Origin: Psammoneis japonica
Taxonomy: Eukaryota
Length of the DNA: 64,000 bases
Assembly (NCBI GenBank): GCA_008632985.1
Contig: QPGO01000263.1
Location: 1-64,000, forward strand
Direction: 5' to 3'
The translations under genes were made by a program, and so were the position numbers. Below the pieces are notes generated by a model, which saw nothing but the letters and a program-made list of their open reading frames with translations, did not search any database and was not told where the DNA came from. Below, piece by piece: positions 1 to 40,037 of the stretch; within the stretch, counting starts at the first letter, position 1, and every line of letters starts with the position of its first letter.

Positions 1-1136
1 ATCAAGACAGGCTTGTGATGTGCACTTGATGTCCTTCTTGGGGTCTTGGTTGGCACACAATGATGGCATGTCATTTTTTGGGCATCACAATGTGCGTGCA
101 CGCCGATTGGAACAAAATGACGTGATGGAGCCTCGGGGACACTCCTGATGTTGGTGTTTGTCATGCAGTCTTGTCATTGTCCAAAGAAGACAAACCAGCA
201 AGTGTGCTGCAATCAGCTGGCTTTTTGACCCTTTTTGTCGAAATTTGCATGCCTCATGAGCCTCTTTTTGTGAGTCTGGTTGATGTGCGCAGGTGTCTGG
301 TCTACAATGGCCCTTTCTTCCTGCTCTGCAATGGTGTCATCTTCACTGTCTGTCATGTTATGCTGTCCATGTTATTTTGAGAGAATTTGGCAGTGTGCCT
401 TCCAGTCTGGGCTTTGCACTTGGTAAAATGGAGAAAGGGAGGAGGGAGGATGGTTTTGCCAGTCTCCTTGCAAATGCAACAAACTGCTGGTGACACTTGG
501 GGCCATGAAATTTGGCCGGGTGACTCACAAGTCTTTTGACATTGTTTGTTGATTTGGGAAATTGGTCTCTGAAATTTCAGTCTAGAGAGGAAATGGACAG
601 AACAGTGTGGGACCTGCTGAAGATTTGTGGCAAAGCATTTGGTGGGCATGCTGTTGCACGTCGACTGTGGAGTTAGTCAGCTGTGGGTGTGTGCTTTTTC
701 TGCATTTTTCATGAGCAGCGAAGCAGCAGACATTGCATTTAGATGGCCCATGGCACATCGCTGTTCTTTAGAGTGTTTGCTCTGCTGGCACTGGAGAGCA
801 GATCAAGAGCTGCAGCGCCAATCATCTGGTCATCGTGTGTGTGCATTGAACGCATTGCAGAGCCTGCAAATCTTCTCTCTCCTCCTCCTCTTTTTCCTCT
901 GCTTTTTTTTTCATAAACTTGGAGCCACCTGCATGACCAGACACATGCCAAATTTCTGATGTGCAGGGAGGAGCTGATTGAAAAATTGCAATGTTGCCCA
1001 TGTTGTGCTGCCGGTGCTCCTGGTGTTCCATTTTGTTGTTGTGTCCATGCCTCATTGCTGTCATCTTCACAAGACCTGTTTCATCAACTGTCTTTGCCAC
1101 ATGTGCCACATGTGACCGTGTGTTGTGCCACCCAGG

Positions 1137-1770
1137 TGCTTCCTCTGGCAAGCAATGGATGTCCATGGGGAAACACCATGTTGTTCTTTTTGGGCCATGT
1201 GGTGCAGTGCTGCTTCTGCACAGTGATGATTGCACTCACAACCTGATTCAATTTCAACATGGATCTTCACATCATGGTGGAATGCCGTGGCTCGCGACAA
1301 GAATGACAGCAAGAATTTGGCTGCTGACTGCCCAAAACCACTCATTTCAACAACAGTGCACCATGTGCTGGTTCTCCATCATCCCCTGAGATCGACAGTG
1401 CCATGACACAGGTCCTCACTCCACCATTGCCGTCAAGCCAAAGCACGCAAAACGAAAAAGACGATCTTCCATCAACAATGCAGACGCAAAAACAGGCCAA
1501 ACAATGTCATTTCTACACCATGCACAATTGCTTGTGGGTTGATTGATGAGTTGGAGGCCTGTCAGGGTGGTGGCAATGTGTTGCCATGTCAGCAGCGGTG
1601 GCATTTTGGTCATTGTGGTGTGTTTTGTGCCCATTTGTGTGAACTCTGTGACGGTGTGCATTCCGACCGCACAAACAAAAAACATGTGGAAGCAGTGCCA
1701 TTTTGTGTGGCCCAAAAAGAACAACATGGTGTTTCCCCGTGGACATTTGTCACTTGCTGGAGGGAGCATG
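1137..1770. repeat. Inverted repeat pair (about 85 bp arms at about 1137-1222 and 1683-1770)
   Basis: ggggaaacaccatgttgttctttttgggcca near 1167 is the reverse complement of tggcccaaaaagaacaacatggtgtttcccc near 1708. Confidence 0.8.
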
Positions 1771-2169
1771 GGAGTCGCCTCAGCAGGGAAACTCTTGCAT
1801 CATCTGGAGAAAGTCTCTCTTGACAAGAATCTCACCTGCGTTCTCTGTTTTGGGGCACGTCAGGTTGGTTGCAGTGTCTCCATCATTGCTTTTGATGCAA
1901 ACNACTGGCTCTCCCCAAAAGCTGCCATTAAAAAAGAAGGGTCCCCTGTCATGAGTTGTTGATCTCATCAAGACAAGTTTCTTCTGATTGAAATCCATGC
2001 AACCACTGTTGCTGATGGCATGAAGCATCACCATTCAAAGAAAGCAACCCCCAAAAAAATTGCCAAGACTGAACAAGCCAAGCTTGACTGTCCAGTGCTT
2101 TGAAAGAACATTTTTGAGAAAGCAGAGTGGACTCGTCCACCATCTGTTGCTCTGCAAGAGCTCTCTGAG

Positions 2170-4385
2170 TTGAAGAAACAGATGACATGTCTTGAAAAGA
2201 AGGTGACTGCAAAAGAGAGCTGCGCTCAAGAAGAGATTCCTTTGGATTTTGTCAACAACTTGGAGTTTGAGGTCAACAAGCTCAATGAGGACAGCAAGAT
2301 TCAAGCACATGCCAAGCCATTGGCAGCAAACACACAGGTGGATTGTGTCATTTGCAAGCAGGCTGCATGCCAAGAGATTGATGGCACCATCGCAAATGGC
2401 TTGGATTTTTGTGTTGCAGCCAGGAAGGACATGTTGCTCATCAAGGATTTCACGTTTGGGCACAGAAAGGGTTTGTCAGCTCTTCAGAACATGATGTTGG
2501 CAGCTTCAGTGGAATCTGTCTTGGTGGATGCAGTTCAAGATGGCATTGGGAAGGACGACACGAGTTGCACCACAAAATCCAAAACACCACTTTTCCAAAA
2601 GGAAGACCCAATGATGAGGGCAATGATTGCTGTTGAAATTGGGTGCAACACTCTGCCTGGCGGGGTCCCAAGTGTTGGCACCAAAAGCATTGAAGAGTTC
2701 TTCAGTGCCAAGCCCAATGCGTCTGTGGATGATCTTGCATTGCACTGCGAGAGCAAGTCATCCATGAACCCAACTGTGCTTTGTGCATTTGGTTTGGCCA
2801 TGATCTGTGAGCCTGGCAACACATGTGATGAGCCGGTGTTGCAAAAGACACATTCATTCATGGCCCTCCAACAGCTCTCCTGGATCATCTTAGAAAGTTT
2901 GCTGCTGGGACAGACATTGTGGTAGATGATTCTGTTGGCAGAAGTGACTGCTGCAGTTGTTGTGGCATTGGTCATGTGTTTGCCACCAGCAAGGACTTCA
3001 AATTGTGTTTGGAATGCAAGTCAACACTTTGCAAGCTTTGCGTCATGGATGCAAAGGAGGCAGACTCTGCAAGAGTCAATGTGCCACACTGCATGTCATG
3101 TCTGAGTGCTGCTGTGGGTGTTGACACCAAGGCGGAAGAGTCTCAGATGTCAACATCTAGGATGCATGAGGAACTTCTGTCTGCAAATGTGCGCGACATT
3201 GCCGACCTGTCCATCAATGAAGTGGAAGAGCTGCGTGATGCAACAGTCAATGGAAAACACAATGAGATTGATGGTTTGGATGACACTCAGTTTCCGGAGT
3301 GGCCTTCAAGTGAGACAAACAATTCATTGCATCTTCTAAAGAAAGTGCCGCTAGATTTTAGTGATGGAGCACAGTTCCTTCAAGCTGAGGAACTGGAGGA
3401 CAAAGAGATCTGCAGTGTGGTTTGCATTCTCTCTGAGCTTTTGAAGTTCTCTGGCTTGCTGGACAAGAGCAAAAGCATGCATGAGCAAGCTGTTCCTGAC
3501 ATTGTTGCTCATTTTGCTCGAGAATCAAGATGAGACAGTGGTGAGTGGCTGATGAAGCACACAAATTGGCACACTGCTGATCCTTGGTCTCAATCACTCG
3601 TGACAGCAACGGGTGCCATTTGTTGTGATTGCAACCTTGATGTGGCCTGCATTCTCATTGATGGAATGGCGGGGGCATCTGTGAAGGATGAGACACATGA
3701 AACAAGAGTGCACTTTTCTGCTGAAAGGCTCATTTGCTGCAGCTGCACATGCAAAGCTGGTTCACAGGGATTGGAGAAGGTCATCTGTGTTCATGCTCTC
3801 TCCATCAAACAGAAATTGTGTCATTTGCTTGTTGATGGTCCAGCTGAACATGCGGTGTGTGAGTTGTCCACTTGGTGGCAGGCGCCCAGTCCAGCTCTTA
3901 ATGCACAAGTGGCAACTGATCTTCAAACTGACATTCTTTACCTGCTCAGCGTGGTTGATGCCTCCAAATGGACTGGCTTGGCAGATGATGTTGCTGTTGG
4001 CACCATCTTGTCAAAACACTCCGTCAGAACTGAGAATGCAAAAGCACCGCCCATGCTGCTTCCAGTCAACACCGCATTCCAGCCACTCCACACCTGCCTT
4101 TTTCAAAATCTGGCACAGAAATTCATCAATGAGATCAAGGGTGCAATGGATGCTGTTCATTCAGTTGATCAATCTGCTTCTGTTTCTGCAGACCCATGCA
4201 ATGCTTCCACTGAAGCTCCAGACTGCGAGCACATCATTGCTGTGAAACTAACTTTGTGCAACATTCTTGAGCGGCACGAGAAAGCAGGCAACTTCCTCAA
4301 CTCCAGTTCAAAAAGAAAACAGCTGACTGCATTGGCAACCACCTGTCTGCCTTTTGAGCATCAACTGGGGCCCCCAAACTTGTGA
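2170..4385 (+). pseudogene. Decayed transposon-associated ORF with an H3TH-like nuclease motif and a SWIM-type zinc finger
   Basis: Consecutive broken ORFs: AVEIGCNTLPGGVPSVG (resembles GCD..PGG..GVG), a CxxC cluster, and CCSCTCKAGSQGLEKVICVHAL (CxC...CxH SWIM pattern). Confidence 0.45.
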
Positions 4386-7300
4386 CCAGGGACAGTGTCC
4401 AAATGTGCAACAAGCTGTCAATGGCATTGTTGGATGTGTGCAAAAGAGGATGGGTGGACCAGAATCCTGTGATTTGCAAGGTCAACTCACATGCCGGTAA
4501 AAAGACTGCCACAGAAAATGATGCAGATTCAATTGATGTGCAACACGAATCCAAACCGCTGGCCAAGAAGCAATGGAAAAGTGTGGCTGGTTGGGAACTG
4601 ATGAGCTGTTTCCTGGTGCAATGTCTGACTCTGATTGTTTCAATGAAACAGGAGTGTTGGAAGTGCAGCGTCAGTTTCAAGAGTGCGATGGCAGGGTGCC
4701 TTTCACCCTCATCCTTGACTGTGGCCATTGATCGACTTGGGCGGCGCGGCACAATGTCCAGTTTGTGCTGCAAGCAACATTTGCACAGAGTGACAAGAAG
4801 TTCTCCACCGTTGATGTGCTGAGAGCTGCAAGTGTTGCTGCTGATCCTTCTGGAAATGAACAGGCTGTGCGTGTTGGAAAAATGTCATCATTCGTGAAGC
4901 GAGGAATGGAGACGCACAAGAATGTTGTGCGATTGTGCAACGCCTGGCTTGCGCGGAGCTTCCAAGCCAACTTCATGTTCAAACTGGTGTTGCAGCTGTG
5001 GTTGACAACACTGCACTCAGAATTGGAGCTTGGTGGGCTGCCACCTGAAGCTGTGCTGGGCATGCCACACAGTTCAGGGCTGTGGCTGCTGGGTGATCTT
5101 GCATTGTTGTGTGAGTTGGCGCTGGCTGGGCACACCAGCTTTGGTGGAGTTGGGCTGGTTGCTGACTTTGTCACAGGAGGAAGACTTGGATTGCATGGAC
5201 TCAATTTGGGAACAAGATGAGTCACCAGAGGCAGAGCAGATGTGCCAGTCCAATTTGGTGCAGCCAAAGGTGCTGGGCTTTGCATGGGTTGGATGTGGGA
5301 AAGCCTGTGGGTGGGAGTCAGCTGTGTGACTGTTGAATGTCGGTGACAGGAGAAGGTCTTTGCTGCAGAGAGCTGCTTTGACTGCAGCTTGCGCAGTGCA
5401 AGGCTGCTGCTCAGAGCCATGCTGAGCATGTCACTCAGTGCAGGACCACATCTGCTTGGCAGTCTGGCCACAGTGTGAGACAGCAGTTTGGCATCACCAG
5501 CGCTGGTGGCAGAGTTGGATTGGGCATCAGATCTGGCACAGGAGGAGGAGTTCTTGGCCATGGACTCAGAGTGGGGTCAAGGAGGAGAGCAGCAGGTGGG
5601 CACACAGAAGGTGTTGCAGCTTTTTGGCTTGGTTTGGTTTTGTCCATTTGGGGATTCCCCAAAATGGGCAGGGTGAGGGGAGTCACTTTGCCCTTTTGGG
5701 GAAAACCTGGGAAATGAGGGCAATTTGGCAGGAAGGAATGCCTGAAAGGGCTCAGGGGAGGGGAACAAAAACAAGTGGAGTGCAGCAATGTGCAATGACC
5801 ACAGTTGGGCGGGTGTGCTTTCATCCCCACAACCATCCATCGTGGGCAACAACCACAACTGATTTGTCAACACATTGGCACAAAGTGGCCCCTTGTGGCA
5901 GAGTGAGAAAAGAACAAACTTTGTCATTCAATCATCAATGTCAATGTTGCTCATGCACAGCTCTGTTTTTGCCTTGGCCTTTGCTCTGGAGCCCTTGTTG
6001 TTTGCATTTGTGACCACATGACTCAAGAAGGAAAAAATGATCCACTGCATTCTGCACATGAGATGGGTCAAAGGGAAGAACAAGCACAACAATTCAATCT
6101 GCCACATTTTTGTTGGCCATGTGCAGCTCTGCTTTTGCCTCATCCTTTGCTCTGCATGCCCCATGGCTTGCATTTGTGGCTGCACAACCCTGCCGGCAGA
6201 GTGATTTGAGCAACCCACTTGACTCCAAACACAAGATGCATCAATTGGAAGAATGAGGCAGACTGTTCAATCTGCCATGCCATCATCATTGGCCATGCAT
6301 GGTTCCACTTTTGTCCTGGCCTTTGCCGTGTGCCTCATTGCTTGCATTTGTGGCTGCATGACAAAAGAACAACCGCTGATGTCTGACGATCAATTGCACT
6401 GGCATTTTGCACATGAGCAACCACATTTTATCTTGTGTTTGATGCTGCAGATCCCATTCAATTGACATTGTTGAATGCATTGAACGATGTCATGATTGAT
6501 CAACAAAAGCCATCACAAATGGGGTGCGAGCACGCCATGGCGTGTTGCCCATTTTTGTTGCGGTTGGTCAACTGTCTGGCTGCATGCGTCCCAGCACACA
6601 AAAGGCATGGAAATGCATGAGAGGGGAAGCACAGGGAACTGCCAATGCACAATTTTTTATCTGTGAGTTGAGCACATGTGTGATGAAGCATGGTTTGTGG
6701 CGGTTCCCCTGGAGTTCACACTTCCTGCAGAAAAACAGGGTGAAAGGTGGCAGTCCCGGGGATTTGGGGGAATCCTGCGGCAAAACCAAACCAAGGTTTT
6801 TGGGCATTGTTTGATTTGGTTGACAGTGTGCATGGATGAAGGTGCATCACATGGTGTGGGGAACTTGGGGTTGCAAAGGGAGAAGGGCAGCATCAAAGGC
6901 ACAAGAGATGGAACACCGCTTGCTCCTGCTGAAGTCACAGTGCATGGAACCAAACTTGGCACTGCAGAGAGAGCAGACAAAGCAATGTCAAAGGGAAGGA
7001 AAAATGAAAGTGCTTTCAAAATTGCCCTGAAGGCGATGCAGATCACCAGGTGGATGGTCAGTCTTGTTGGACTTTGTGTGGCCACAGGCAGCCAGTGGCT
7101 GAGGAGTTGGGCTGGGCATTGGATCAGGCAGAGGAGAGGAAAACTTGGCTGCAGACTCAGACCAGATGCAGGAGGAGATGAAGGAGGCAAAGGGGTGGGC
7201 ATGTGTCAATCCAATTTGAAGCTGGCAAAGGCTTTGGGTGGTCTGGTGCAGGAACGGGTTTGGGCAGCTCTGCTGGCTCTGGAGTTAGCCACAACATCAG

Positions 7301-8082
7301 ATCAGGGGCAGGATGAGTGCCTGAGGTTTTCACTTCAGAGCTGCACCTGGGCACTGGGCTGCCACCTCTTGGGTTGCACCAGTTGTGTCATTTGGCACAT
7401 GGGGTTGTGCACAACTTGGTGCAGCCTTGTTGCATCACCCAAATTTTCCACACGAGTTGTTTTCTGAAGTGCTGTCACATCATTTGGCACCTCCACTGCC
7501 TTGCTGTCTGCTGATGACACATTGTCCTCCTCAAAAGAATGGAGGAGTTTTCATCATGTGGGCCAGAACTTCAGCAAACCCTTGTGGTCAAGGGGCGTGC
7601 AAAAGAGGAGGACACTGTGCAGCCACACACTCATGTGCAGACCTTCCAGTCAATGAGTTTGACATTTTTTCAGCAACTGCCTCGTTGACATGATCTTGAC
7701 ACAAAGGGCATCACAACGGGAAGAAAAAATGAGCACTGTTGGCTGCTGCTGGGTGAATGACCAAAAACAGTTGTGCGCAATTTTCCACGGGGCTTGAGTC
7801 CTGCCACTTCAGCAGTTTTTCATCTTTTGCCAAAGCAACATGGCTCAAACCCCACAGAAATCATGTGGGGTGGACAACACTGCCCACAAAATTGGGGATT
7901 GTGATGCTTGTTGTGCGCGAGTCATGGCAGTCATTGGCACTGGCACTCACCACCAGCTTGCTGAGATCCACTGGCTGAGTGTGTCAACAAGGCTTGCCAG
8001 CCAACATTTTTGCAAAATTTGCTTGTTTTTGTGCAGGTGCACTGTCCAAGCAATGGCGCTGGGAGTGTGCAGGAGAGCTGAG

Positions 8083-8430
8083 GGCACCCAAGTTTTGCCC
8101 CAAAGGTGGGTGCCCAAGTTTCACCCCAAAGGGGGTGCCCAAGTTCACTCTAAAGCTGGGCTGTGCCCAAGTTTTGTTCCAAAGCTGGGCACCCAAGTTT
8201 TGCCCCAAAGTTGGGCACCCGCACAGGTTTTTCCCAAAAGTTGGGTTCCCCAGTCTCCCTCCCCCCTTCCCAAAGTTGTGCACCCAAGTTTTGCCCAAAG
8301 GTTGGCTCCCAAATTTGCCTCAAAGCTGGGTGCCCAAGTTTTGCCCTGAAGCTGGGCACCTCCAAGTTTTGCCCCAAAGTTGGGTGCCCAACTTTTGTCA
8401 CCAAGTTGGGCTTCTTGGTGCACCCAAACA
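8083..8430. repeat. Degenerate minisatellite of roughly 25 bp units (gggcaccc/gggtgccc + aagttttgccccaaag)
   Basis: More than 10 visible copies of cccaagtttt(g)cccaaag(c/t)tggg. Confidence 0.85.
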
Positions 8431-8519
8431 CAAGCCAGCTTGCCAGCAATGGGCAGCAGCTCTCAAGTGCTCATGGGGCCAGCATGGGCTGACTTTGACT
8501 TTGGAGATGTTGTGCAGAT

Positions 8520-9200
8520 CAGCAACAAGGGGCAACAAGCAAGTTCAAAAATGAACAAGAGCAGCTGCTCAAGGTTGCCAGCAGCACTGATGCTGACACA
8601 AGATGCTCTTTCTCAAGAGAAATTGTGGGTGCAAACCAAGCAAAGATCAAACAGTCATTTTGTGAGGAGAAACAATGGATTTTTTGAATCCAGCCATCTG
8701 GGTGACACAGACAGTGATGTCATCAAGAACGACCACAACTGCGGCACAAAGACTGCCCAAAACCTGTCTTGTCGCTGCTCAAGGATCGAGCAGTTGACAA
8801 AGCAGCAATGTGGGTGATGTCAGCTCACCCTTTGGACTGCCCTGTGGTGTGCATCAGTTGTGCCACCAGCACCAGTCAGTGGGGCCACAAGTGCTGGGGG
8901 TGCAAACAAACTGTGATGAGGCTGCACTCATCATGCATGGAGGCTCACCTTCAAACATGAAGCGGCGCTTGTCCAAACTTGCTCTTTTGCGTTGTTGCTG
9001 CCTGCAAAGAAGGAGCTGAAGCTGCTCCAAAGCTGCTGGAAGAGGAGCTCAAGTGGTGCCATCTGGGCTTCACAGCGCTTGTCTCAACTTGTTTTTGGAG
9101 CAGATGCTGCACTCAGGTGCCATGTTTAAAACAGCGGCCATGTGCTGTGACTCTGCTCCAGAGGTTTTGTTGGCAAGGGTTCTGTGATTTGCAACTTGCG
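8520..9200 (+). mobile_element. Possible LTR-retrotransposon RNase H/integrase remnant
   Basis: IKNDHN (cf. IYTDHKN) and LKWCH...LLQRFCWQG (cf. WYH...RFYW of the integrase Zn-binding region). Heavily degraded. Confidence 0.35.
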
Positions 9201-9394
9201 ACAAGAGAAAAAGAGGTGTGTGTCTGTTGCTCTCTTCTTTGTTTTGTCCAACACCATGCCACAGTCCATCAAAAAATTTCATCCACGAAGTTGAACATCT
9301 TTCATGCGCCGTTCATTGTTTGAGTCACCCGGCTGTGTCTTTCAGTGCAGCAGAAGTGCACAAGGCCTGCAGTCTGCCACACCGCACAGCACAG

Positions 9395-9630
9395 CACCGC
9401 ATGAAAAAACAGCAGCCGACCATGGACAAAACAATGACACCATGATGTGATTGACTGACAGAAACCGACAAGAGCACATTGTCAGTGACACACAGCAAAT
9501 TTTATGAGTGGGGGCCCAGCAGGGGCCGCATGAAAAAACAGCAGCCGACCATGGACAAACCAATGACACCATGTGATTGACTGACAGAAACTGACCAGAG
9601 CACATTATCAGTGATAGTAAATTTTATGCC
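9395..9630 (+). repeat. Tandem duplication of about 130 bp at the TE/gene boundary
   Basis: catgaaaaaacagcagccgaccatggacaaa...gcacatt(g/a)tcagtga...aattttatg occurs twice. Confidence 0.9.
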
Positions 9631-9942
9631 TGTCTTAATCATTGTAGCATTTTATTTTTAAATCAATTGATTGCATACAAAACCCCCAACGACTGAATTT
9701 CGCGATAGGAAACTTGATCTTAGAAACGACAAATTAACGCTTTAATAAATAATTGCGTCGAAAAGCGTTACACGAGAAAAAAACACGCAAGAGGCACGCG
9801 GAGTGAGCGAGCCCCCTTTTCCCGCTCAAATCGCCTCGATCTCTCCCGCAGTAGAAAATCATCTCACTTTTTTTCTTTGCTGGGTCGACCAAGCTCCTTT
9901 CGTACATTTTTTTGTAAAGCAGTAAAGAAAAGTTTGTTCAAC

Positions 9943-11599
9943 ATGAGTGGTAAGTCTCTATCTCTCGTACGGAACTTGTTCTTTTCCTCTGCGTTGTTTG
10001 CTCATTCGCTCGTTCCTCCTTACAGAGAAATCGGACTTGCACAAAGCTCTCAGCATCTTCAAGATGTTCTACTCCACCGTTCTCCTTGTGTTCTCGCTGG
10101 TGATCGTTATGGGCTTGATCTTCACAAGGCAGACGGCGTGGTCCGAGCAATACCATCCTGCTCTTGCCTTTATTATCCTTTGGGTGATGTTGATTTGGCT
10201 CTCGTTCGTCGAGGGCGGACAGGCTTCGTTGGTTGGACTTCACCCGATTGACCGTGAGCTCTACAAGGACACCCACCCGATCGCTTACAAGGGCAATGCC
10301 ATGACCCAACAGGGAGATAACCTCGATCGCTACCTTATGGGCCGTCAGTTCATGGTCATCTTTATCGTTTTCCTCATCAACAAGTGTGGAGCCCCCATCG
10401 AAGGTGCTGAACTCTGGGGATTGCCCAAGTGGATTGTCGACATCTTCCTTGTCACCGGATTCGCCATGATCCTCTTTACGGCACAGGTCGGGCAGTTGCA
10501 GTCGCAGGTCAACGCATCGCTCTGTATGCTTGACTACTTCAACGATTATGCAAACCTCTTCACGCTCTACACTGCCAGGGCGATTGAATTCACTGGTCTC
10601 ATGCACTTCTCCTACTTTATCCAGATTTGTGTTGGATACCTTGCTGGCAAGCCCATCGAATCCAAGGAGCCTCCGCGCAGCACCGGTCAATCTCTTTTCT
10701 TCTGGTTCCGTGTCCTTGTCTCGTTTGTCGTCCTCGGCTTTGCCTTGGCAGTCACCCTATCTGCTCTTTTCCAAGGACAAACCACCATGTGGGACGGTGT
10801 TCCCGAGGCAGTTGCCGTGATTCTTTTCTTCCTCCTCATGTCTGTCGTTGGTATGCTCGAAGGTATGCAGATTGCCTTCTTTGCCGTCGCCAAGCTTACC
10901 AAGGACGAGCGTGGAAGAGCCAAGTGTGCCAAGATGACTTGCGACCTCCTCTACAAGGGCAGGGGACACAACCTTCCCAATTTCATGATTGGCCGTCAGC
11001 TCAGCGTCGTGTCTTGCTTCTTCATTATCTCTCGTGTCACCACTGTCTCGATGGACGAGGGCAAGGGCAACCTGTGGGGTGTTAGCGATGGACTCCAAGA
11101 ACTCTTTGAAACTGGTTTCCTTGGTGCCACCATTACTACTATTCTCGGATCCATCTCGTGGCAGCTTGTCGCGTCTGCCTTTCCCATTGCCTTTTTGTCA
11201 AACCCCATCACCTACCTGTTCCTCCGCATCTGTCTATTTTTGGAGGCCACCGGTATTTGCTCTGGAGCATGGTTCCTTGCCAAGATTGACAAGAAGGTCC
11301 GAGGCTTTAAGCGTGACGAAGTCTACATTGGCACTGCTGAAGAACGTGCTGCGCGCAAGGGCGGCAAAGAAGACGAAGAAGAAAGTGTCGAGGCTGGCCA
11401 TTTGTACCCGGCTGTTCCACTCTTGCCCAAGGACGTAGAATACAATGACCTCTCTCTCGATCAAATCGAAGAACTCGAAAGCGAGATTGATGAACACATG
11501 AAGGAGCTGCAGGAGCGCAAAGCCGGTTTGACACTGCAGAAACAAAAGCTGATGAATCCAGACGGTTCAAGCGGCACTGATGACATTGAAGAACCCTAA
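9943..11599 (+). CDS. SIT: Silicon transporter (diatom SIT family); predicted intron 9950-10025
   Basis: About 10 hydrophobic segments, four GXQ motifs (EGGQ, GRQ, EGMQ, GRQ), CMLD motif and a C-terminal coiled coil. ATG AGT G|gtaagt...tacag|AG AAA gives MSEKSDLH. Confidence 0.97.
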
Positions 11600-11829
11600 G
11601 AGGGGATTCCCACTTATATCTAGGCCCCACAAACACATATGGCGCCCTTTCGATGTTGGTAGTATTTGCCTTTGTTCATAACACAATGGCACAGCATTTG
11701 CGTAATCCACCCGAATAAAATAATGTTTATTACATGAGGGACACTGTACTCTTTAAAATAATTGGACACTGCCATCATGCGCCGTAGCCAGCGCTGTACT
11801 TTTTAAAAAATGGTCAATCAGCAGTCCAC

Positions 11830-12800
11830 ACAAGTGCCGGTGACAAGAATGCCCGCCTGCGTCCTCTCAAGAAAGCAGACTGCAACAGGCGCCCAGAGTC
11901 TGTTGTCAGTGCACGCACACGAGAGGTGATGATAAGAACGGCATGCATGGACTCACTCTTTCACTGCTGCCAACTGACTGGAGTGCTGCTGCACCTGAAA
12001 CTCTGCACCTGGCTGGCAAAAAATGGAAAGGATGCTTGAGAGGGTTGCTGGTCAGGATGAGTGCTGGAGAACAACAACAGGACGACTTTTTGGAGCGATG
12101 CTGTTTTTGTGGAAACACCACGCCCAGTGGGCTGGAGTTCTGCACAACATGAAAAAGTGGCTGCTCTTCTTTGGGGAGGGTTGGTGAGAAAAGCCAGTGC
12201 AAGTGAGGGTGACAAAGACACCCTGTGTGCACCGTGTCCTCTCAACAAGAAAGCAGACCACGCAAAAAATGAATCGCTCAAAGTCTGTCAGTGACCACCG
12301 GGGAGGTGACAACAACAACATTGTGCATGGATTGTCCAGTTTGGGACTCCAATCTCCGCCGGTGGAGATTTGCTCCACTTGAAGATGTGTGACATGTCAT
12401 GCACTTTTGCAACAATGCAATGAACACAGCACAAAAATGTCACATCGTGTGCAATCTGCGCAGAGCACACCACATGCATTTGCTTGTTGGGAGCAAACTC
12501 CAAGGGTGCGGTGTTGTTGCTCCATTTGTGACAGCAATTCATGATGACCTCCATTGTCAAAGGTTGAGATTTAGTTCCTCTCCATTCACAGATGAAGCTT
12601 GCAAAAAACCCGGTGTTAAAAGTCGACATTGAACTTTCTAAATTGCAAAAAGGGTTCCCCCAGATTTTCGGTGAATGCACGTTCTAAAACAAAATCGTGC
12701 GGATGAAACATCACACACATCTGAAGTTGCTTCATTCACTGTGTTTGTGATGCAAGCAAGCAAATCTCCACCCATGGAGATTTGCTCAAGTCCAGTGGTT
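11830..12800. mobile_element. Degenerate dispersed-repeat block (TA/CG-depleted)
   Basis: 11945-12060 matches 19290-19400; 12340-12490 matches 30550-30700. Confidence 0.7.
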
Positions 12801-12879
12801 GAAGGGTCAAACCTCTGATGAAGCAACAAAACAGGCCATTCAGCATGAAAAGTTCCACAGCAAACCCAAAAAAACCAAA

Positions 12880-14597
12880 AAGAGAAAAAAGTGATGCAGC
12901 GCAAAGTCCGGGCTAAACCTGCACAAGGTGTTTGATCATCCCAGCTTGAGCCACTCCAATCATCAAGTGCAACAATTGTGTGAAATGGCAAAGAAGGCTG
13001 ACCAAATGGGAGACCGGGCCCTTTCCAAGCACATCTTGAATGAACTAAAAACGGCCACTCCGAACGATGCCCAGATCTGCAAATGATTGGCACAATTGGA
13101 GCAGGAAGAGGCAATGTCGATGCTGCTTGAGCTGTTCTTGAAACCACAGCCAACCTTTTTCCCATGAATGCCTGCCTCTGGAATGGACTTGGCAATCTCG
13201 AAGGCTTGATTGGCAATGCAGATGGACAAATCAAGCACTGCCACTTGGCCATTGACAAGGATCCCAGATCTCCTCACCCTGCCACGCCCTCGGCACTCTC
13301 CTGCACATGCAGGGTGAAACTGCCAGTGCCATGAAAATTTTGAAAAAGGGCATTGTGCATTGTCTCACCAACCATTGGCTCCACCATGCCCTTGGCATTT
13401 TGCATCGAGACGCCAAGAGGTTGCACGTGGCTTCCAAAAGTTGTCGCAAGGTGTCACATGCACACAAAAGGGTGACTGCACATCCAACCATTGTTCACAT
13501 TGGTGACATGCAAGCACATGCCACAACACAAGGCCCTTTTAAAACGGGGCGGATCGGTGTCGACAATGGCTGCACCAGAGTGTGGACCTAAAACAAGGGC
13601 CGCCACGCCAATGGGTGGGTGAGTCTCGCGCAGTTTGAAGAATCGTTGGACAACATTGACGCCGCCCGGTCGGCCTGCATCTCGGGGATTGCTTTGTTCG
13701 AGTGTGGATTGTTGGATCAAATGTCGAGCAGCGGCAAGCTAAACTTAACCGAGCGAGTTGTTGGAAGATCCCGTCGAGCTGTGCAACAAGTTGCTACGCA
13801 CCGTACCGTAGCATCGATCGGGAGATCGATTCATTAACGTGTATCACAACTGGGCGAGACTGGAAGAGTGTCATGGTACAATTGAGAGCTTTGAGGAGGA
13901 ATACGAACGTGCCATGCTCGCCTTTCCCACACAGTACAAGATCGCCTTGGACGCGGCAGAGTGCTACATCAAGACTTGCATGCACGACAAGGCCCAATTG
14001 CGATTCGCCGACGCGTGTCGTATTTCCAATCACACCGAACCGTATCGATTGTTTGCCGAATTTGAAATGTCAAATGGTGACTACCAGCTAGCACAGAGAA
14101 TGCTCTACTCCGGAGCCATGAAGATGCTCCAGTCTAACCACCAGCAAGGACTGGCGCAGCTATTTTATACGCGGGCCGTTTGCGAGTGGCATCTGGACAA
14201 CCTCCGCCACGCCGAAACGCTTTTCGAGTATGCACTGGAGGAACTAAAGGCTAGAAGGGTGTCGAGACTGTGATCCGTCATTTTGTATTCCAGGGCCAGG
14301 TTCGAATATTACCGAGAAGAGTGCACTCGAGCGCAACACTACATTGGCTTGTGCTTACAAGAAGATATGTTCCCCAGCAGAAATGTCCCCATTTGGGAAC
14401 TGTGGCAAGATGTGGCCATGGCACAGAAAGACCTTTTTTATGCGAGAGAGTGCGAAAAAGAGTCTATCAAAGCAGAACTCGATGCCGAACCATATCTATC
14501 GGACATTAAGATCTCCATGCGAAAGGATCCCTGGCATTACAGTTTGTTTGGGTACGGACCGAAAGATTTGCTTCTAGAATTGCCAGGCGATCGTTGA
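12880..14597 (+). pseudogene. TPR/HAT-repeat protein with a hypermutated 5' half, stops and frameshifts
   Basis: Helical repeat motifs (LWNGLGNLE, LHHALGIL, YHNWARLEE, LFAEFEMSNG) spread over several frames. TGA stops at 13084 and 13128 fall where CGA (Arg) would fit. Confidence 0.75.
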
Positions 14598-14770
14598 CAG
14601 AATGAACAAAGTACCGTAGAACGGAGGCGTTTATGTATATAGTTTAAAATAGAACCAGCAGTGAAGATATGCCAATAACGTGCTAACAAATAATGTTGTT
14701 CATGCCTCATGAGATTATTAACCTTGGTCTGGCACAGATCAACACATAAATCGTGCGCTACAATGTTGCA

Positions 14771-17262
14771 TCATGCTGAGAACGGCCAAGTGTAGCCGAA
14801 ATTCTCGAAGTCAGCCGCAAAGAGCTCAAGCATGATTTGTTTCGTACGCTTGTTCTCGGCAAATCGCTTAAAGTCAGGGTACGAAGGAGATTCGTTCTTG
14901 TGGATCATTTCCACATTGTCGCCTTCCTCACCCGATCCTCTGAGACACGGAATTGCCTCCAATAATTCACTCATGTCGCCACTGAGGCGCTCCAACTGAA
15001 AGATACGCTTTACCACAATCGTATCGGTATCATCCACCACCCAGCTTGTTTGCGTGCTATTGAATGATCTCGAATCTTGATTCCCGTGCCCTTTTGATCC
15101 AATCAAGTAATGCTTCGGACTCCCGGGTGGATATTCCTCATATAGAGTTCGAATCCATTCATGAAAGGCTTCAATCTTTTCTTCATCACTCATTTGATCA
15201 ACCGCTTCCCCATATGGAAGGAATCGATCCCTACAATCTTGTCCGTAGTGTTGTTCCGAACACATACTAGACAAAAAGAAGAAATTTGAGACTTGTCGAG
15301 CCAAGGGATGTCGCACCACGGCAAATGTGTAAGCGTTGTCCCATGCTTCCTGGCCATAGTGGTCAATGAAGGAGCGGGCGGTGGCGTGAAAGCTGCGATG
15401 TCCGCCCTCCCACCTCTCACTCACGTACTCCTCTCCGCATCTCTTGTGAAGCATGTCGATTAAAGAAGTCCCACCAGTCTTGTTGATATGCACAAAGAGA
15501 AACGGAATGCTCCTTGATGGCGTTGATTTCTTATGACGATCATGGTGATGATGTCTACGCTCATCAAAGGCAAACTTTTGGTATCGGCTAGACAACAGAG
15601 CCGCGGCACCAATCGAAAAGCCGTGATTGACAGTACCGTGTCCCCAAAATTCTGGAATATACATCAAGTCGCCAGGCTTTTGCAGGCAATACATAAACAA
15701 GAATCGTCCAACAGTTCCGAGCTCTTCCTTGCCGGCATTCCCGTCCAGCCACGAAATAGGGGCGGGCTGATTTTCCACTCCTTCATTCCAACATACAGAA
15801 TATTAATGGCAGCATTGTGCCAGTGTAGGGCGGCCCCCGCTTCGTCTCCACCAAAAAAGACTTGAAATACAAAGTCCTTGTCGCGGGGTCCAAACCAATT
15901 TTCAATAATCCGCCAACCACTATCTCCATCATAAGGGTTGCCATCATAGATTGGGTAGAGTTCGTCAAAATCTTTCGGTTCCGGATGAAACGCGTGTACC
16001 ATGGGAACGCCCGGCTGTTCGGGACATTGTTTCTTTTGTTCCATTTCGGCAATAGTGAGCTTTCGAGTGCAATGGTGTTGTCCCGTGTTGGACGGATAGG
16101 AACAGGGACCGACTTCGACGGGCATGTCGGGGTGGAAGCGTTTCGTTTGTTGCCACCGGCGCTTGGCAAATTGTTCAATCTCCGACCGTGGGGTTTGATT
16201 CCGAATGAGCACCGGTCGCCCCGTCAAAAAGTATTCTTTGAAAAAGGTGTCGCTGGACAATTCCCCCTCGACAATGTCTATTTCGCACGTTTCATCGACG
16301 GCAAAGCTCGTTTCCTTGTTCCATCCCATCTCTCCCGTTGATCCTTGGGTGCGTCTGAAATGGTGAGAGCGTCCCTGAGATGGTTCGGACTTCACGGTAA
16401 TGTTCAGTACGGTCTCCGCCTTGATGGGTCGAATGGGCGACCCTTTCATTAACACATAATCACGAATGGTACGACCAAAGGAATCAATCACCAAATCATT
16501 GTTGGAGCGTGATAGAATCTGGACAATTTCCGCATACCCGCCTCGAATGGCTTCCTGTATCGCATTGAGGCCACGCCGATGGGAAAATTCCTCCTTGAGA
16601 GGTGCCGAATAGAGAGGATCGGCGTCTTTTCGCTGCTTCATAATGGATCGCACCACACGTGGCATCCCCATGACGGTCGCCTGAATCAGATAGTCATTGA
16701 TTACATGTGTGGGGACGTCCGGGTGCAGCAACTCCACGTAGGCCATGCACTTGAGAAAGCAATCTTGTCGTTTCGAATGGGCAATGCCGCGGAAAAAGAA
16801 CAGGTCAATGCCGTTGGTGTATCCATTGTGGGGAGGATGGAGTATGGGATAAAAGTATTGGCAGGGACCGAGACTCTTCGTATCGCCGGATCCTTCGTGC
16901 TGGAGCCTCTTAAAGGTATGTTCATGGTGCCCATCATGTTCATAGCAGAATTCGTCGTCGGGCAACAAACGCGGACTATTATCGGTTCGCATTACATTGG
17001 GCCACGTCTTGTTGCTTTCCGCTTGCAGCTGGGCAAGTGGAGTATGCTTGGCCGGGATCTCCCACACGTGCGGTTGTTTCTCGGTCGAGGCCGTCGTGTT
17101 TTCCAAGCGAGCAGAGGAGCCCCAAAACAAGGTAACACAAAGAGCTTGAAAGCCAAATGCCAAGCAAGCGAGGGTGATCCTGCGCATCCACGGATTGGAG
17201 GGAAGCTTCAGAGTCGGCGTCATCATCCTGGAATCTCTGGAGCAACCACTGCCAACTCGCAA
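14771..17262 (-). CDS. Membrane-anchored or secreted ankyrin-like + JmjC/cupin + sulfotransferase-family protein (1-nt frameshift near 15700)
   Basis: N-terminal hydrophobic segment; AIQEAIRGGYAEIVQIL (ankyrin-like); GRPVLIR...FFGGDEAGAALHWHNAAINILYVGMKEW, continuing in the next frame as CLQKPGDLMYIPEFWGH (JmjC); FVHINKTGGTS...FAVVRHPLARQVSNF (PAPS-binding motifs). Confidence 0.75.
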
Positions 17263-17829
17263 ACTGAATATATACTCAGCCCCTGTCGATCAACCCCTGT
17301 CGATCAATTTGCACTCGAAAAGATGGATCCTTTTTGTTTTGAGTTTATCTACCAGGATGTTTTCCTTCCCAGCAGCAGAATCATCGTGCACCGCCGATCT
17401 TGGAAAAGCACAGAAAATTCAAGTCGTGTTCGAGAATTTTTGGGATCACAAATCACAACCGAGTTTTATTTCTATTTATCCAGCTACAAAGTTCGACATT
17501 GTCACAAGCACGCGGGGCTTTAACACGGTACCTTCATTTTCATATATATATTAAAGAGTTCAACGGACGTTGGTGTCATTTTTTGTTAACGGCTGCTGTC
17601 ATACATACGTACAGAAGAAGAGTAAAAAGAATCCGGTGTTCAGCGCGCGGGGTCCTGGCGCCCGAGTCGTGATGGACGGTGTAATTGATCGAGTCTTTAC
17701 TTGCCGTTCGAAAGATCCGGTCGTTTGAGACGGTTTTTGGTGCTGGGAAAAACCACCCCATGTGCAGATTTTAACGATCTTACAAGAAACTTCTGCATTA
17801 CAGTAACTGTGTTGAGATTGTAAGGTAGA

Positions 17830-20700
17830 GCGCCTCCATGCTTCTCTGGACCTGAAGTTCTGCACCTCCTGACAAAAAAAGTGAGGACAATCAAGGACAG
17901 TGCATGCACAGGTGCTGATTGTCACAGAGGTGCCTCTGTGCTTCTGCACCTGAAGCTCTGTTCCTGACAAAAAAAGTGAGGACACTGGAGAGGATTGCTC
18001 AACTGTGAAAAAAGTGAGGAGACACTCAAGAGGAGAGTCCACGCACACCAGGTGCCAACTGAGGCAGGGGCACTTCCATGCTTTTGCACCTGAAGCTCTG
18101 TTCCTGACAAAAAAAGTGAGGACACTGGAGAGGATTGCTTGCCAGGAAAAAGTGAGGAAATTGTTGTAGAATCCCTGCAACCGCCTCAGCTTGGCCGCAA
18201 TGTGCTGATGACATGTCACAGTGCGAAGCTGCCAAAACAGCCCCAACAACCCAGCACACAAATGTGCCTGATGCATGGAACACATGCAAGCATGTGTGTT
18301 TGTGCAGTGCTGCTGAGATGGCAGCCAGAAAACAGGGGGAACAAATCTGTGAATCTGGCCAAATCAGCCCATTTTGTTCTCCAGCACTGTGTGAACAGAT
18401 GAACAGAGGGCAGTGTTGGTGGGAATTTTTCAGCACATTGTCGACCCATGTTGGGTCACCGCAACTGATCCCATTGCTGCCAGTTGTCTGCCAAGAACAA
18501 AATGGGGGGAACTGGGACACCCTCTCATGATCATCCATGTGTCTGTCTTATCCACCTTCTCCAGAGCACTGCTGTCATGCGGTGAATGCTCCAAGAGCAT
18601 GGCCACCCACAAGGTTGTCCTCTCCTTGTGCTTGGCCTGCTGTCTTTGCATTGAACACTCAAGGATTGCTGGCCAGAGGAGCTGGTGTCCTCTCAAGAGA
18701 CAGCCAGCAGCAGGCGGCTCAAAAGAGTATCTGTCAGCAACCACCAAGAGGCAACAAGAACAACAACATGTGTGTGAGCTCACTCTTGCACAGATGCCAG
18801 CTGGTGAGAAACCTCCATGCTGCGCACCTGAGGATCTCTGCACTTGATGAAACAAAAAAGTGAGGACACTTGAGAGGGCTGCAGGCTGGGGAAAAAATTG
18901 AGGACACTCAACAGGGTTGCTGGGGCCAGAGGAGCCGGTGAACAACATGCCTTTTTGGGGCGGCTTTTTGATGGAAATTCCATGCCCAAGTGGGCCAGAA
19001 TTCTGCACAAGATGAAAAAAGTGAGGGCTCTCTGGAGAGAATTGGAGCAAGAAAAGAGCCGGGCACCACTCTGTGTGAGATGCAAACAGTCAACACCTCC
19101 ACATTTGTGCATGCCTGCTGGCACAGCTCTCCTTGCCCACAGCTCTTGAAGAAATGAACAAGAATGCCCTGCCAACAACAAAGCATTGGCACAGTGTGCC
19201 ACACACAGGTGCGCATGGCTTCAACAGCTGCCTGCCACATTTCTTGCTTTCTCTCCTGTGCCATCCAATGCTGCAAAGTTAAGTGCCATCATGGACTCAC
19301 TCTCTTCCTGCTGCCAACTGAAACTGGAGGCACGTCTGTGAGCAGAGTCCTGAAGTTCTGCACCTGTCAAAAAAGCAGGGACGCTTGAGAGGGTTGCACA
19401 CCAGAGCAAAAACCAGCAGGCTGGAGTTCAGCACAAGATGAAAAAAGCAATTGCACTCTGGGAAGGATTGGCAAGAGAAGCCAGCACCCAAGTGCTGCTC
19501 CATGCAAGATGCAGCAAGAAGACAGCACCTCAAAAAATGAGCCTGCTGGTGCATGGATCTCCCCATCCACAGCTCTTGCTCAAAGAAACAAACAACAGCA
19601 CAGTGAAAAATGCACTTTGGCATGGAACAAGCACGCCACACAGGCATGTGCTGGCTTCAATGTGGCTGCCCACCAATCTCTCCTGTGGCTCAAATCAACT
19701 GGCCATTTCCACAAGCAATCAAGGGACAATGATGCTCCAAGAGTGCACCCCCACACCCTTTCCAGGAGAAAGCAGGCTGCTTGGGTGAGTTGATCAGAGT
19801 TTGTCAGCACACACCTGGGAGGCAGCAGCAGCAACAACAATGTGAGTGGACACTCTTGCTCTTGTGCTGGCATGCCAACTGGAGGTGCCTCTCTGCACTG
19901 CTGCACCTGAAGCTCTGTGCCTGACGAAAAAACGTGAGGACATTGAAGAGGATTGACCGCTGATGGAGCTGGCACAATTGCATCTTACAATGACAGGACT
20001 CTTTGGACTTTAGAGTGATTTCTTCTGGAGACACTGCATGTGCCAGACTCTGGTTCTGTGCTGTGAAAAAAGTGATGGCTCTCATGAGAGGAACAGCTAG
20101 CCAGAGAAACTGGCATCTGACTGAGCACTGCCCCTGCAAGACATGAGCAGTCAATGCCTCCACAAGTGATCCTGCTGGCATGTGCCTCCCACCCCCCTCA
20201 ACACTCATGTGAGCTTTCATGAAGAGAGAAACAAGCCGGTCTTCATTTCATTGTCTGCCACAATGATTGAGTGTGCTTCCAGGACACGTGGGTGGCTTCT
20301 CCAGAGCTGTTTTGCATCTGGATGCATGTGGTGCTTGTCATGACATTTCCTGAGAATTTCCAAGACTCACATGCTGGACAACATGAGTGCAGTGCAGACA
20401 CTTTGAACTCTTCATTGGCAGAGCACGGCAAAGAAACCTGCAGAACAATTTTGCTTTTCTTGGGCCAGCAAACTTGTGAGCCGCCATGCTGCAGCATCAT
20501 CTTCCAAGCACACTCCCAAAGCCCATCAAAGTGCACAAGTCACTCTACCAAATGGTGTGCAGTTGCCCTCTGTTGACGACATTGGGGTGTTCCTCTGCAC
20601 TGTGCTCTGGCTGAACCTGCCAATTTTCAGGGAAAGTTGGTGAGATTGTTCAAGAAGAAATGAAGCTCAAGACTCAAGAGTTCATTGTTTGGTGGATGTT
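17830..20700. mobile_element. Degenerate repeat block with a recurring unit gcacctgaagctctgttcctgacaaaaaaagtgaggacac
   Basis: Unit seen at about 17850, 17946, 18086, 18825 and 19903; TA/CG-depleted. Confidence 0.75.
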
Positions 20701-21043
20701 TGGATGTGAATGCTGGCTGATGATTGATGACGGAAGGTCCATCCACCGGCACTGCCGCTGCGGCACAGCTGTCACCGCATCATAGCTGCTAGAGCTAGAG
20801 CAGAGCTGTTCGAGAGCCGAGAGTAGCTTCCGGTGGCACACAGCACAGCACGCACGCTGCGCACCGGCAGTTGGGACTGCGTCCGGCCGTCGGCCCGTGG
20901 ATGCTGAGTCATTCCTCAGTCGTGGTGTAGGTGGCGGAAAGGGAGAAAGTACAGCAGGCAAACGTGTGACGTTCCATTCGACCACCATGTTCGATGTTGC
21001 TTTCAATGTCTCTACATTATAGTTTAAGTTCATCACACCAACC

Positions 21044-21871
21044 ATGAAGTGCACTGCTATTATGTTTTCAGTGACATCCTTTGCGCAGGGTGTAGCTGGT
21101 CTGCAACCACCCGCCCACAAAAGAGCAACGTCCACGTTGTTGACGCCGCCAGTATCAAGACGCACCGCGTTTGGAGCAGCAGCCATCGTTGCAGCAGCCG
21201 CATCTATTTTGCCAGCTCGAGCCGCCGAAACCGTGGGAAAAGACCCGAGTTGCAACAGCAACTCTTGCTTGGGAGTGTGGGATGGCCTGCTTGCCGACTG
21301 TCCGCACACCATGAAGAACGGTGCAGGGTGTGTTTCTTCACAGGACGATACGCCTGGTGTGTTTGCAGAGCCCTGGGATTATTCGGAGGACGGCGATTTT
21401 GACGAAAAAGCGGTAATGAAGCGACTAATAACAGCAATTCAGTCTGTTACAGCCAAGCGAGGCGATACCGTGCGGTTTCTCCAGCAAGAGGGACGGTATC
21501 TCCGAGTCGCCTTTGCCGATGGCCGCAGTGACGAAAGGTCGGTTGGCGAATTTTACCTAACCCAAAATGACACTACGGTTCAATTCCGATTGGCAAGCAT
21601 GGATAGTGGAAGCTTCTCTTCCTTGAAAAATATGGAGCGTTCCGAACTCATTCGCAAGGAGCTTGGCTTTTTGAAGCTACCAGTGTTGCGGAATCGCAAG
21701 CGCTCTTTGTTTTTCGTGGAGTCGGATCTGGATACCTTTGGACCTGGTTCGGCTTTGCTTGGACCTCCGGCGGAAATGACAACAGGCGAACTCAATGGGC
21801 GACAAGACGTTGACCCAAAACTCAAAATTGACTTGCTACAGCAATTTCCTTTACAAAGTGGATCACAATAG
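21044..21871 (+). CDS. DUF1499-family protein, probably plastid/thylakoid-lumen targeted
   Basis: Signal-like N-terminus, twin-Arg SRRTAF...ARA motif, LADCP...GCVSSQDD, GRYLRV and VQFR motifs. Confidence 0.75.
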   Translation: MKCTAIMFSVTSFAQGVAGLQPPAHKRATSTLLTPPVSRRTAFGAAAIVAAAASILPARAAETVGKDPSCNSNSCLGVWDGLLADCPHTMKNGAGCVSSQDDTPGVFAEPWDYSEDGDFDEKAVMKRLITAIQSVTAKRGDTVRFLQQEGRYLRVAFADGRSDERSVGEFYLTQNDTTVQFRLASMDSGSFSSLKNMERSELIRKELGFLKLPVLRNRKRSLFFVESDLDTFGPGSALLGPPAEMTTGELNGRQDVDPKLKIDLLQQFPLQSGSQ

Positions 21872-40015: not shown

Positions 40016-40037
40016 TTTAAAATACAATAATGATCAT

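Follow-up and report, generated by a model that had tools for sequence, protein, structure and literature searches.

Hypermutation directed at repeats is known as a C-to-T process, exemplified by repeat-induced point mutation (RIP), methyl-CpG decay and APOBEC. Adenine is deaminated with a preference for a 5'-U or 5'-T by ADAR, which edits retroelement RNA, and by TadA/ADAT, which act on U-A-C in the anticodon loop, while the very-short-patch repair of enterobacteria removes CTAG by correcting T:G to C:G. In ascomycete fungi, RIP is described as converting C to T mainly at CpA, and it therefore creates TpA (PMC3318451). Diatoms possess DNMT4 enzymes, reported in 31 of 60 diatom species, which cluster with RID, the RIP factor of fungi, and are given no known function in that account (PMC9998398). 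In dinoflagellates, 5-hydroxymethyluracil is described as replacing thymine preferentially in TA and TC through a TET/JBP enzyme, and as marking and silencing transposable elements (PMC11572971). Here, we describe five blocks of DNA from which the TA step has been almost completely purged, located in a 64,000-nucleotide window of Psammoneis japonica (assembly GCA_008632985.1, contig QPGO01000263.1, positions 1 to 64,000 of the forward strand). The few TA steps left in these blocks mostly follow a pyrimidine and precede a purine, and they almost never stand in the opposite arrangement.

Scanned for composition in 1-kb steps, the window consists of ordinary gene islands (9601-11809, 13536-17829, 20781-27444, 36781-51524 and 57301-64000) and five TA-poor blocks (B1 to B5) with sharp edges of less than 100 bp. 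Across the 29.4 kb of blocks, the observed/expected ratio (O/E) is 0.05 for TA, 0.20 for CG and 1.83 for both TG and CA, versus 0.58, 0.95 and 1.16 in the islands, with a GC content of 48.8% in the blocks and 48.6% in the islands. The lost steps are TA and CG only, as AA/TT has an O/E of 1.20 in blocks and 1.18 in islands and AT has one of 0.86 and 0.92, respectively. GC-biased gene conversion is rejected on these figures, given the near-identical GC content, the unchanged AA/TT and AT steps and a loss that depends on neighboring bases; a sequence-only reading of the same DNA had likewise argued against general GC-biased conversion, and rightly so.

Each TA of the blocks was listed with its flanking bases and assigned to one of four classes, YTAR, YTAY, RTAR or RTAY, where Y is a pyrimidine and R a purine. 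B1 (1-9600) contains 27 TA (15 YTAR, 8 YTAY, 4 RTAR and 0 RTAY), with per-kb O/E values of 0.00-0.13 for TA, 0.09-0.40 for CG and 1.6-2.2 for TG/CA; at its right edge, sparse TA ends at 9503 and dense TA sets in at 9606. B2 (11810-13535) is multicopy and TA-purged, with 7 TA (6 YTAR and 1 RTAR) and only partial depletion of CG (O/E 0.37-0.71). B3 (17830-20780, TA O/E 0.03-0.15) has 8 TA, comprising 3 YTAR, 3 YTAY, 1 RTAR and 1 RTAY. B4 (27445-36780) has a copy of a duplicated gene pair on either side and retains 24 TA (17 YTAR, 3 YTAY, 4 RTAR and 0 RTAY); at its left edge, the dense TA of the island ends at 27442, and the next TA follows at 27841. B5 (51525-57300), the most CG-depleted block (O/E 0.03-0.15), holds 26 TA, of which 15 are YTAR, 5 YTAY, 5 RTAR and 1 RTAY. 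In B2 and in the first ~400 bp of B4 (27445-27840), there are few or no TA, yet CG is still dense (O/E up to 0.7). Consequently, the TA purge is independent of CpG decay and either earlier or faster.

The flanking bias of the leftover TA is confirmed by exact counts. Between 1 and 9400, there are 26 TA, divided into 15 YTAR, 7 YTAY, 4 RTAR and 0 RTAY, exactly as the sequence-only reading had tallied by eye, and moving the edge to 9600 adds a single site, a TTAT at 9503. The absence of RTAY among the 27 TA of B1 has a p of 0.0027 under a first-order composition model and of 0.00015 under island proportions. All five blocks together contain 92 TA, namely 56 YTAR, 19 YTAY, 15 RTAR and 2 RTAY, where composition predicts 28.5, 22.7, 22.7 and 18.1 (the TA total being fixed and the frequencies of xT and Ay being taken from the blocks themselves). 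The 1307 TA of the islands are distributed in a different manner, with strand-averaged counts of 202 YTAR, 370.5 YTAY, 370.5 RTAR and 364 RTAY, so that a comparison of NTAN words in all depleted blocks and in gene islands finds the bias repeated in the former and reversed in the latter. The five-block departure has a p of 3e-10 against composition and 1e-27 against islands. When TA is instead assigned by chance to the blocks' own TG/CA contexts, whose numbers differ little between classes, the p is 5e-18. B2 to B5 alone give the same result (65 TA: 41 YTAR, 22 mixed and 2 RTAY; p 4e-8 against composition and 3e-22 against islands), and trimming 300 bp from each block edge leaves the pattern unchanged (55/17/14/2 of 88). 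We tested for clustering of TA sites within blocks and found none. The commonest leftover word is TTAA, with 22 of the 92 sites. CTAG also ranks among the best-persisting words of the blocks (7 observed, 5.8 expected), unlike under very-short-patch repair, which removes this one tetranucleotide genome-wide. In the islands, we observe that TTAA and CTAA/TTAG occur at 0.35-0.46 of first-order expectation, and that GTAC, CTAC/GTAG and ATAC/GTAT are in excess.

The bias is graded and reaches beyond the adjacent base. When the bases 5' of the T are read on either strand, the 92 sites yield 184 half-sites, in which position -1 is T in 97 cases, C in 49, G in 21 and A in 17 (a pyrimidine in 146 of 184), and T makes up 52% of position -2 and 43% of position -3. 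As a share of the pyrimidine-purine steps in the blocks, TA reaches 2.6% after T, 1.5% after C and 0.5% after either G or A. Sorted by the two preceding bases, the share is 5.0% after TT, 3.1% after TC, 2.1% after CT, 1.6% after GT and 0.2% after AA or AG. Because the bias extends to -2 and -3, the leftover TA is better described as Tn-TA-An than as plain Y-TA-R; the purine/pyrimidine flank rule of the sequence-only reading is therefore correct at -1 and incomplete as a full description. The two half-sites of a TA behave independently. With a probability of 0.79 for a pyrimidine at -1, independent half-sites would give 57.9 YTAR, 30.2 mixed and 3.9 RTAY, close to the 56, 34 and 2 observed, and within YTAR sites the presence of T at -2 on one side is likewise independent of its presence on the other (17/25/14).

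Relative to composition, an estimated 9.4% of YTAR sites survive, compared with 3.6% of mixed sites and 0.5% of RTAY. The earlier claim that RTAY is absent or rare while YTAR remains thus withstands correction for composition, but its companion, that YTAR is hit on neither strand, fails, since a class cut to 9.4% of expectation has not been spared. The corresponding hazards per half-site are 1.18 and 2.62, a 2.2-fold difference. This modest preference reproduces the near-absence of RTAY because it is amplified by a near-complete purge.

The blocks are silenced transposon relics, and one of them preserves enough of a coding region to reveal the direction of change. A Pfam scan of 129 stop-to-stop block frames (20 of at least 146 amino acids and 109 of at least 90) returned no match at E <= 0.01 for 126 of them and weak matches unrelated to transposons for two (BCD1 and DUF3678). 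In B4, a frame on the plus strand at 33858-34385 matches DDE_Tnp_4 with an E of 2e-4, under the curated cut-off, and represents the relic of a Harbinger/PIF-type DDE transposase; an exhaustive profile search finds 701 relatives at E <= 1e-3, the best at 2.5e-28. In an alignment with 60 relatives, conserved tyrosine columns (Tyr in 46/53, 54/60 and 37/50) read TGT, TGC and CAT in the relic, and conserved arginine columns (Arg in 40/59, 34/60 and 49/59) read TGC, TGT and CAC. Compared with P0152, the closest relative found (59% identical), six of the seven aligned tyrosines are Cys or His in the relic. As conserved Tyr and Arg are now Cys or His, TA as well as CG have changed to TG or CA. The CG part resembles methylation-driven CpG decay, with CG turned into TG/CA in the blocks (CG O/E 0.20, TG/CA 1.83), arginines replaced by Cys or His and polymorphism that continues today. 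The TA part differs in that CpG decay leaves it unexplained, in its greater completeness (O/E 0.05) and in its presence where CG is dense. The DNMT4 enzymes of diatoms could serve the CG half of this process, not the TA half.

The transposase family itself contains similar cases. Among the 150 best relatives of the relic, 13 are poor in tyrosine and have Cys or His at the conserved Tyr columns (P0003, P0010, P0041, P0044, P0066, P0093, P0102, P0104, P0109, P0117, P0131, P0133 and P0139, all from a public representative protein library). Over the three Tyr columns, these relatives and the window copy together have 19 Cys, 15 His, 2 Tyr, 1 Arg and 1 Phe, and whether Cys or His occupies a given column differs from copy to copy. 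Of 86 cells in their conserved Arg columns, 61 retain Arg, so conversion of TA is more complete than that of CG. Judged from these protein sequences, the same purge appears to be recorded in many other copies or genomes. Within the window, tyrosine is missing from every block frame, and Cys and His are abundant. With TAA and TAG gone, TGA is the only stop, and spurious frames of up to 299 amino acids appear in several frames on both strands. Searches with other block frames returned little: the frame at 3534-4382 had no relative in a word-indexed protein search, that at 2104-2922 had none in metagenome contigs, and a protein atlas search of block frames gave sub-threshold leads only (SWIM at 0.85). 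No TA-free stretch was present at 10 metagenome loci around relatives of the silicon transporter of the window (45-75% identity).

Repeat copies within the blocks indicate that conversion took place in situ and separately in each copy. In B5, an LTR-like (long terminal repeat) direct repeat on the plus strand, with its left copy at 51682-52113 and its right copy at 56261-56733, is 76% identical over 425 aligned bases, and CA stands opposite TG at 18 steps (21 in a wider alignment). The flanks of these CA-opposite-TG sites, which are few and mixed with CG-derived sites, are 5 R..R, 4 R..Y, 3 Y..Y and 2 Y..R. In seven other in-block repeat pairs, CA faces TG 37 times in 997 aligned bases. A gene duplicate outside the blocks serves as a control: the copy at 25113-27113 (minus strand), which encodes a carbohydrate-binding module and a carbonic anhydrase, is 89% identical to 37268-39289 and is not hypermutated, with one CA-opposite-TG step in 1992 aligned bases and 52 TA and 92 CG conserved. 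It belongs to the gene pair whose direct copies flank B4 (24643-27275 and 36864-39765, 89% identical, not hypermutated). Islands, introns and this 2-kb gene duplicate are untouched by the purge. It is the facing of CA and TG between copies, together with the varying choice of Cys or His among relatives, that points to independent conversion in place.

The same observations exclude RNA-level A-to-I editing fixed by retrotransposition, because TG and CA are both raised 1.83-fold, a DNA-transposon relic is affected and either Cys or His can occupy the same column; per-kb counts of TG and CA are also similar in most block segments. The blocks share with ADAR and TadA an A-to-G outcome and the requirement for a T 5' of the A, and the favorable 3' pyrimidine resembles the TadA substrate. 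Those enzymes, however, act on RNA and on one strand, whereas in the blocks TG and CA rise about equally and DNA was converted in place.

The right edge of B1 provides a small polarized test of the flank preference. A tandem duplicate on the plus strand spans this edge (9397-9628, with copies at 9397-9506 and 9526-9628 that are 94% identical); its inner, block-side copy is converted and its outer copy keeps TA. The outer ATTATC, ATAG and AGTAAA correspond to ATTGTC, ACAG and AGCAAA in the inner copy, which are the predicted one-sided products, and TTTTATG is kept in both. In the transposase relic, the single Tyr codon preceded by a pyrimidine (C) has become TGC, again as predicted. The polarized one-sided sites, three from the edge duplicate and this one codon, therefore show the predicted product in four of four cases, for which chance is 1 in 16 if no flank rule applies. 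With respect to the 5'-TAY target proposed by the sequence-only reading, a graded preference agrees with the best-fitting flank model (described below) and with the edge-duplicate products. A strict rule does not, because YTAR is itself reduced to 9.4% and Tyr after Asp (x = Y) has become His in two cases among the Tyr-poor relatives. By our own arithmetic, a strict flank rule would also predict a Cys:His ratio of about 3:1, as opposed to the 19:15 observed. Grouped by the residue before Tyr, the counts, which are without power, are 4-5 Cys and 7-8 His for x = R and 1-4 Cys and 2 His for x = Y.

The blocks resemble the products of RIP in several respects: dense transitions, confinement to transposon-derived DNA, sharp edges, action on both strands, destruction of coding capacity and a dinucleotide context are common to both. 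They differ from RIP in losing TpA (O/E 0.05) through A:T-to-G:C changes, in a GC content that is not lowered and in tyrosine codons TAY that become TGY or CAY. Dependence on duplication, the trigger of RIP, is not seen in the 2-kb duplicate next to B4, which is unmutated at 89% identity; by read depth, B1 is part single-copy and part multicopy.

That the blocks are genuine is supported by a public DNA sequencing run (X1), whose contigs reproduce them in long pieces with 0-29 differences and cover B1 at no less than 99% likeness over long pieces. X1 may be the source of the assembly and so does not count as independent support, yet it speaks against a consensus artifact. Its word depth is ~58 in single-copy islands, ~115-125 in the unique part of B1 and 1200-2000 over 5337-6670 and 12007-13340 (1422-2084 over the latter in B2); as the last values are far above ~58, parts of the blocks are multicopy families. 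Some long-read base callers make systematic miscalls at modified bases, and one could suppose that the TA deficit is a base-calling or assembly error of this kind, or else that the blocks are imported DNA natively devoid of TA, all the more as the block sequence is found in one sequencing study only. Deep X1 reads (word depth ~58-125) nevertheless reproduce the blocks, with the reservation just made, and the single N and one 83-N gap in the window are typical of scaffolded accurate-read assemblies. A foreign composition is in turn contradicted by the replacement of Tyr and Arg by Cys and His relative to 150 relatives and by CA standing opposite TG between copies, which represent independent conversions. 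We regard error or import as the least credible of the explanations weighed here.

Of 156 haplotype differences between the window and X1, 40 are listed, and 38 of these lie in B1. Among the 38, 20 are CG versus TG/CA, which indicates that CpG decay is continuing, and 14 are other changes. Two involve TA versus TG/CA, namely TTCAA/TTTAA at 2302 and TTTAG/TTTGG at 3360. The remaining two form an adjacent double difference at 3546-3547 (TG in the window, CA in X1), a pattern that would follow from separate conversion of one ancestral CG or TA in the two lineages.

In these silenced relics, transitions in place have turned the self-complementary pyrimidine-purine steps TA and CG into TG/CA, and the TA-directed part outpaced the CG part and went further. 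Each TA step comprises two half-sites, one per strand, that are hit separately. We propose that conversion of a half-site is ~2- to 3-fold slower if a pyrimidine precedes the T, above all with T at -1 and -2 (or, in equivalent terms, if A or G comes after the A). A near-complete purge combined with such a modest rate difference would leave nearly all remaining sites as Y-TA-R, typically Tn-TA-An, and almost none as R-TA-Y. A bolder reading, to which we assign a probability of roughly 0.3, is a diatom hypermutation system directed at transposons and acting on A:T pairs. An enzyme recruited to silent chromatin would, on either strand, change TpA to TpG/CpA, most readily near 5'-R-T-A-Y-3' and with Tn-TA-An refractory, ahead of methyl-CpG decay and more fully.

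Our main reading, that the bias arose as TA was removed, stands at about even odds. We compared three Poisson models over the 16 flank contexts (12 degrees of freedom). A multiplicative survival model fits best, with a deviance of 12.4-12.6, and a model of uniform creation with additive removal (4 parameters) gives 23.3 (p 0.025). With two parameters, multiplicative survival reaches a negative log likelihood of -106.9, additive creation one of -102.6 and uniform creation with additive removal one of -102.8.

Several results weigh against our main reading. The additive model, in which TA is created from xCAy/xTGy at a rate set by the base before C, is not rejected (deviance 15.5, p 0.22). T at -2 is found on the Y side of 24 of 34 mixed sites versus 59 of 112 YTAR half-sites (Fisher p 0.077), and this excess is what one-sided creation predicts. 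TA density is 4.5 per kb in B5 compared with 2.6-2.8 per kb in B1, B3 and B4; the block with the strongest CG depletion does not have the fewest TA, a result better explained by re-accumulation or a steady state than by survival alone. The Cys:His ratio at ancestral tyrosines amounts to a weak product asymmetry at most, and the survival figures rest on proxies for the ancestral TA contexts (composition, islands and TG+CA contexts). Both TA-involving differences among the 38 listed in B1 lie in YTAR contexts, and ongoing removal of TA is not demonstrated by the differences listed. Finally, no gene for the agent was identified from the 64-kb window.

Much of this would follow if TA had been purged regardless of flank, perhaps in an early burst, and the TA now present were mostly new, having arisen by YCA to YTA (TGR to TAR) changes. 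Candidate sources of such changes are sunlight damage at dipyrimidines or a deaminase that prefers TC/CC. The fitted creation rates of the additive model, in which creation occurs only after Y, are 1 for T, 0.36 for C, 0.04 for G and 0 for A. T occupies -2 in 71% of cases on the Y side of mixed sites and in 53% within YTAR, near the hand-worked predictions of 75% and 51%. Both listed TA polymorphisms are in dipyrimidine contexts, and TA density fails to fall with CG depletion. Leftover CG points the same way when related to island density (0.14 for YCGR and 0.34 for RCGY), and C-to-T change after a pyrimidine would explain both biases; related to composition, however, the CG flank bias is weak (0.157 versus 0.228). 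A dipyrimidine C-to-T signature could account for the pyrimidine before TA at 146 of 184 half-sites and for the greater loss of YCG than of RCG, but the additive model fits worse: the multiplicative model is ahead by 4.3 log-likelihood units with two parameters, and additive creation predicts 45 YTAR and 45 mixed sites where 56 and 34 are observed. One-sided creation would also give hand-worked counts of ~12/34/10 for T at -2 in YTAR, as opposed to the observed 17/25/14, and the four of four polarized sites show that removal itself follows the flank. In 2063-4686, the haplotype differences include 3 non-CpG transitions in 2.6 kb, and each lineage has lost ~10 of ~45 CG. A rough rate argument from these figures yields ~2.5 new TA over an age of B1 estimated from CG decay, versus 10 present; this is our own arithmetic, with wide uncertainty. 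We consider re-creation as the dominant source of the bias possible but rather doubtful, and clearly less likely than biased removal; removal bias and re-creation bias may both contribute.

Selection offers a different reason for the persistence of certain TA steps, which could be kept as functional words, such as TAA/TAG stops, TTAA or TWA target sites, or polyadenylation-like signals. TAR, on either strand, does include the stops TAA and TAG, and TTAA accounts for 22 of 92 sites. The blocks, however, have no recognizable coding capacity among 129 frames beyond the weak transposase relic, the sites are evenly spread rather than clustered, and TA sites are polymorphic between haplotypes. The bias is also graded (T > C > G = A) and reaches -2 and -3, unlike discrete words. 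Selection is consequently very improbable, though not quite as improbable as an artifact.

With regard to the agent, we infer that removal is carried out in silent chromatin by an enzyme that works on DNA, which could be either an adenine deaminase acting at 5'-TA and best at 5'-TAY, or a thymine-modifying activity at 5'-(R)TA; from the sequence, A-to-G change is not separable from T-to-C change on the partner strand. Oxidized thymines mispair with G. A modified or oxidized T at TpA in silent transposon chromatin might therefore cause the same removal as T-to-C change, preferred after a purine, and because T-to-C at RTA is A-to-G at TAY on the other strand, all of our counts fit this chemistry equally well. 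Dinoflagellate 5-hydroxymethyluracil, as described, provides a precedent (PMC11572971): it too is aimed at the thymine of TpA, at transposons and at silencing, in a related algal supergroup. It differs in that it is described as an epigenetic mark and not as a mutational purge, and it is not known from diatoms; nothing in this analysis indicates such a modification or enzyme in them. We view the thymine route as unlikely, and as less probable than re-creation.

In the literature that we searched, mostly at abstract level and without subscription journals or preprint supplements, no account of such a purge of TA from diatom repeats turned up. Erasure of TpA by A:T-to-G:C change in DNA would amount to a different chemistry from the C-to-T systems and would imply an as yet unknown enzyme in ecologically dominant algae. 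If the hypermutation reading is true, the process would mirror fungal RIP on the purine (or thymine) side and would be the first natural genome-defense mutator to raise the GC content of its target. The flank rule, in which T at -1 and -2 is protective, a purine at -1 is permissive, the strands are independent and the effect is ~2-fold, would provide a fingerprint with which candidate deaminases or thymine modifiers can be recognized in vitro, and it separates enzyme action from repair bias. The purge also has practical consequences. Open frames that are free of TA and tyrosine and can be closed by TGA stops only give rise to long false open reading frames that mislead gene finders, and the TA-purge signature could serve for mapping silenced DNA in diatom genomes and estimating its age.

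The gene islands identify the window, from its sequence, as evidently diatom nuclear DNA, since the frame of a silicon transporter and other gene frames match Pfam families. The silicon transporter gene (9947-11596, plus strand) lies in a normal island, matches Silic_transp with an E of 8e-209 and is covered by contigs of run X2. Further island frames match DUF6824, DEAD-box helicase, PP2C and carbonic anhydrases with carbohydrate-binding modules. Right where the silicon transporter frame begins (9948-10025), X2 contigs skip 76 bases with GT..AG ends, which likely represent an intron, and by virtue of this skip X2 behaves like an RNA run; its contigs do not cover B1 to B3, and no RNA run is listed among those that contain B1, which provides no evidence either way on their expression. 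On the minus strand at 45974-49819, an open frame of 1282 residues has no Pfam match and is built of tandem repeats of 93 to 264 bases. Its local composition (TG O/E 1.65, CA 0.5, CG 0.36-0.45 and GC 58-59%) looks like that of a repetitive gene and not of a purged block. At the right end of B4 (34445-36780), C exceeds G (GC skew about -0.4 to -0.5), frames are rich in His, and CA occurs at 133 per kb compared with 88-90 per kb for TG, so that conversion is locally strand-asymmetric in this segment.

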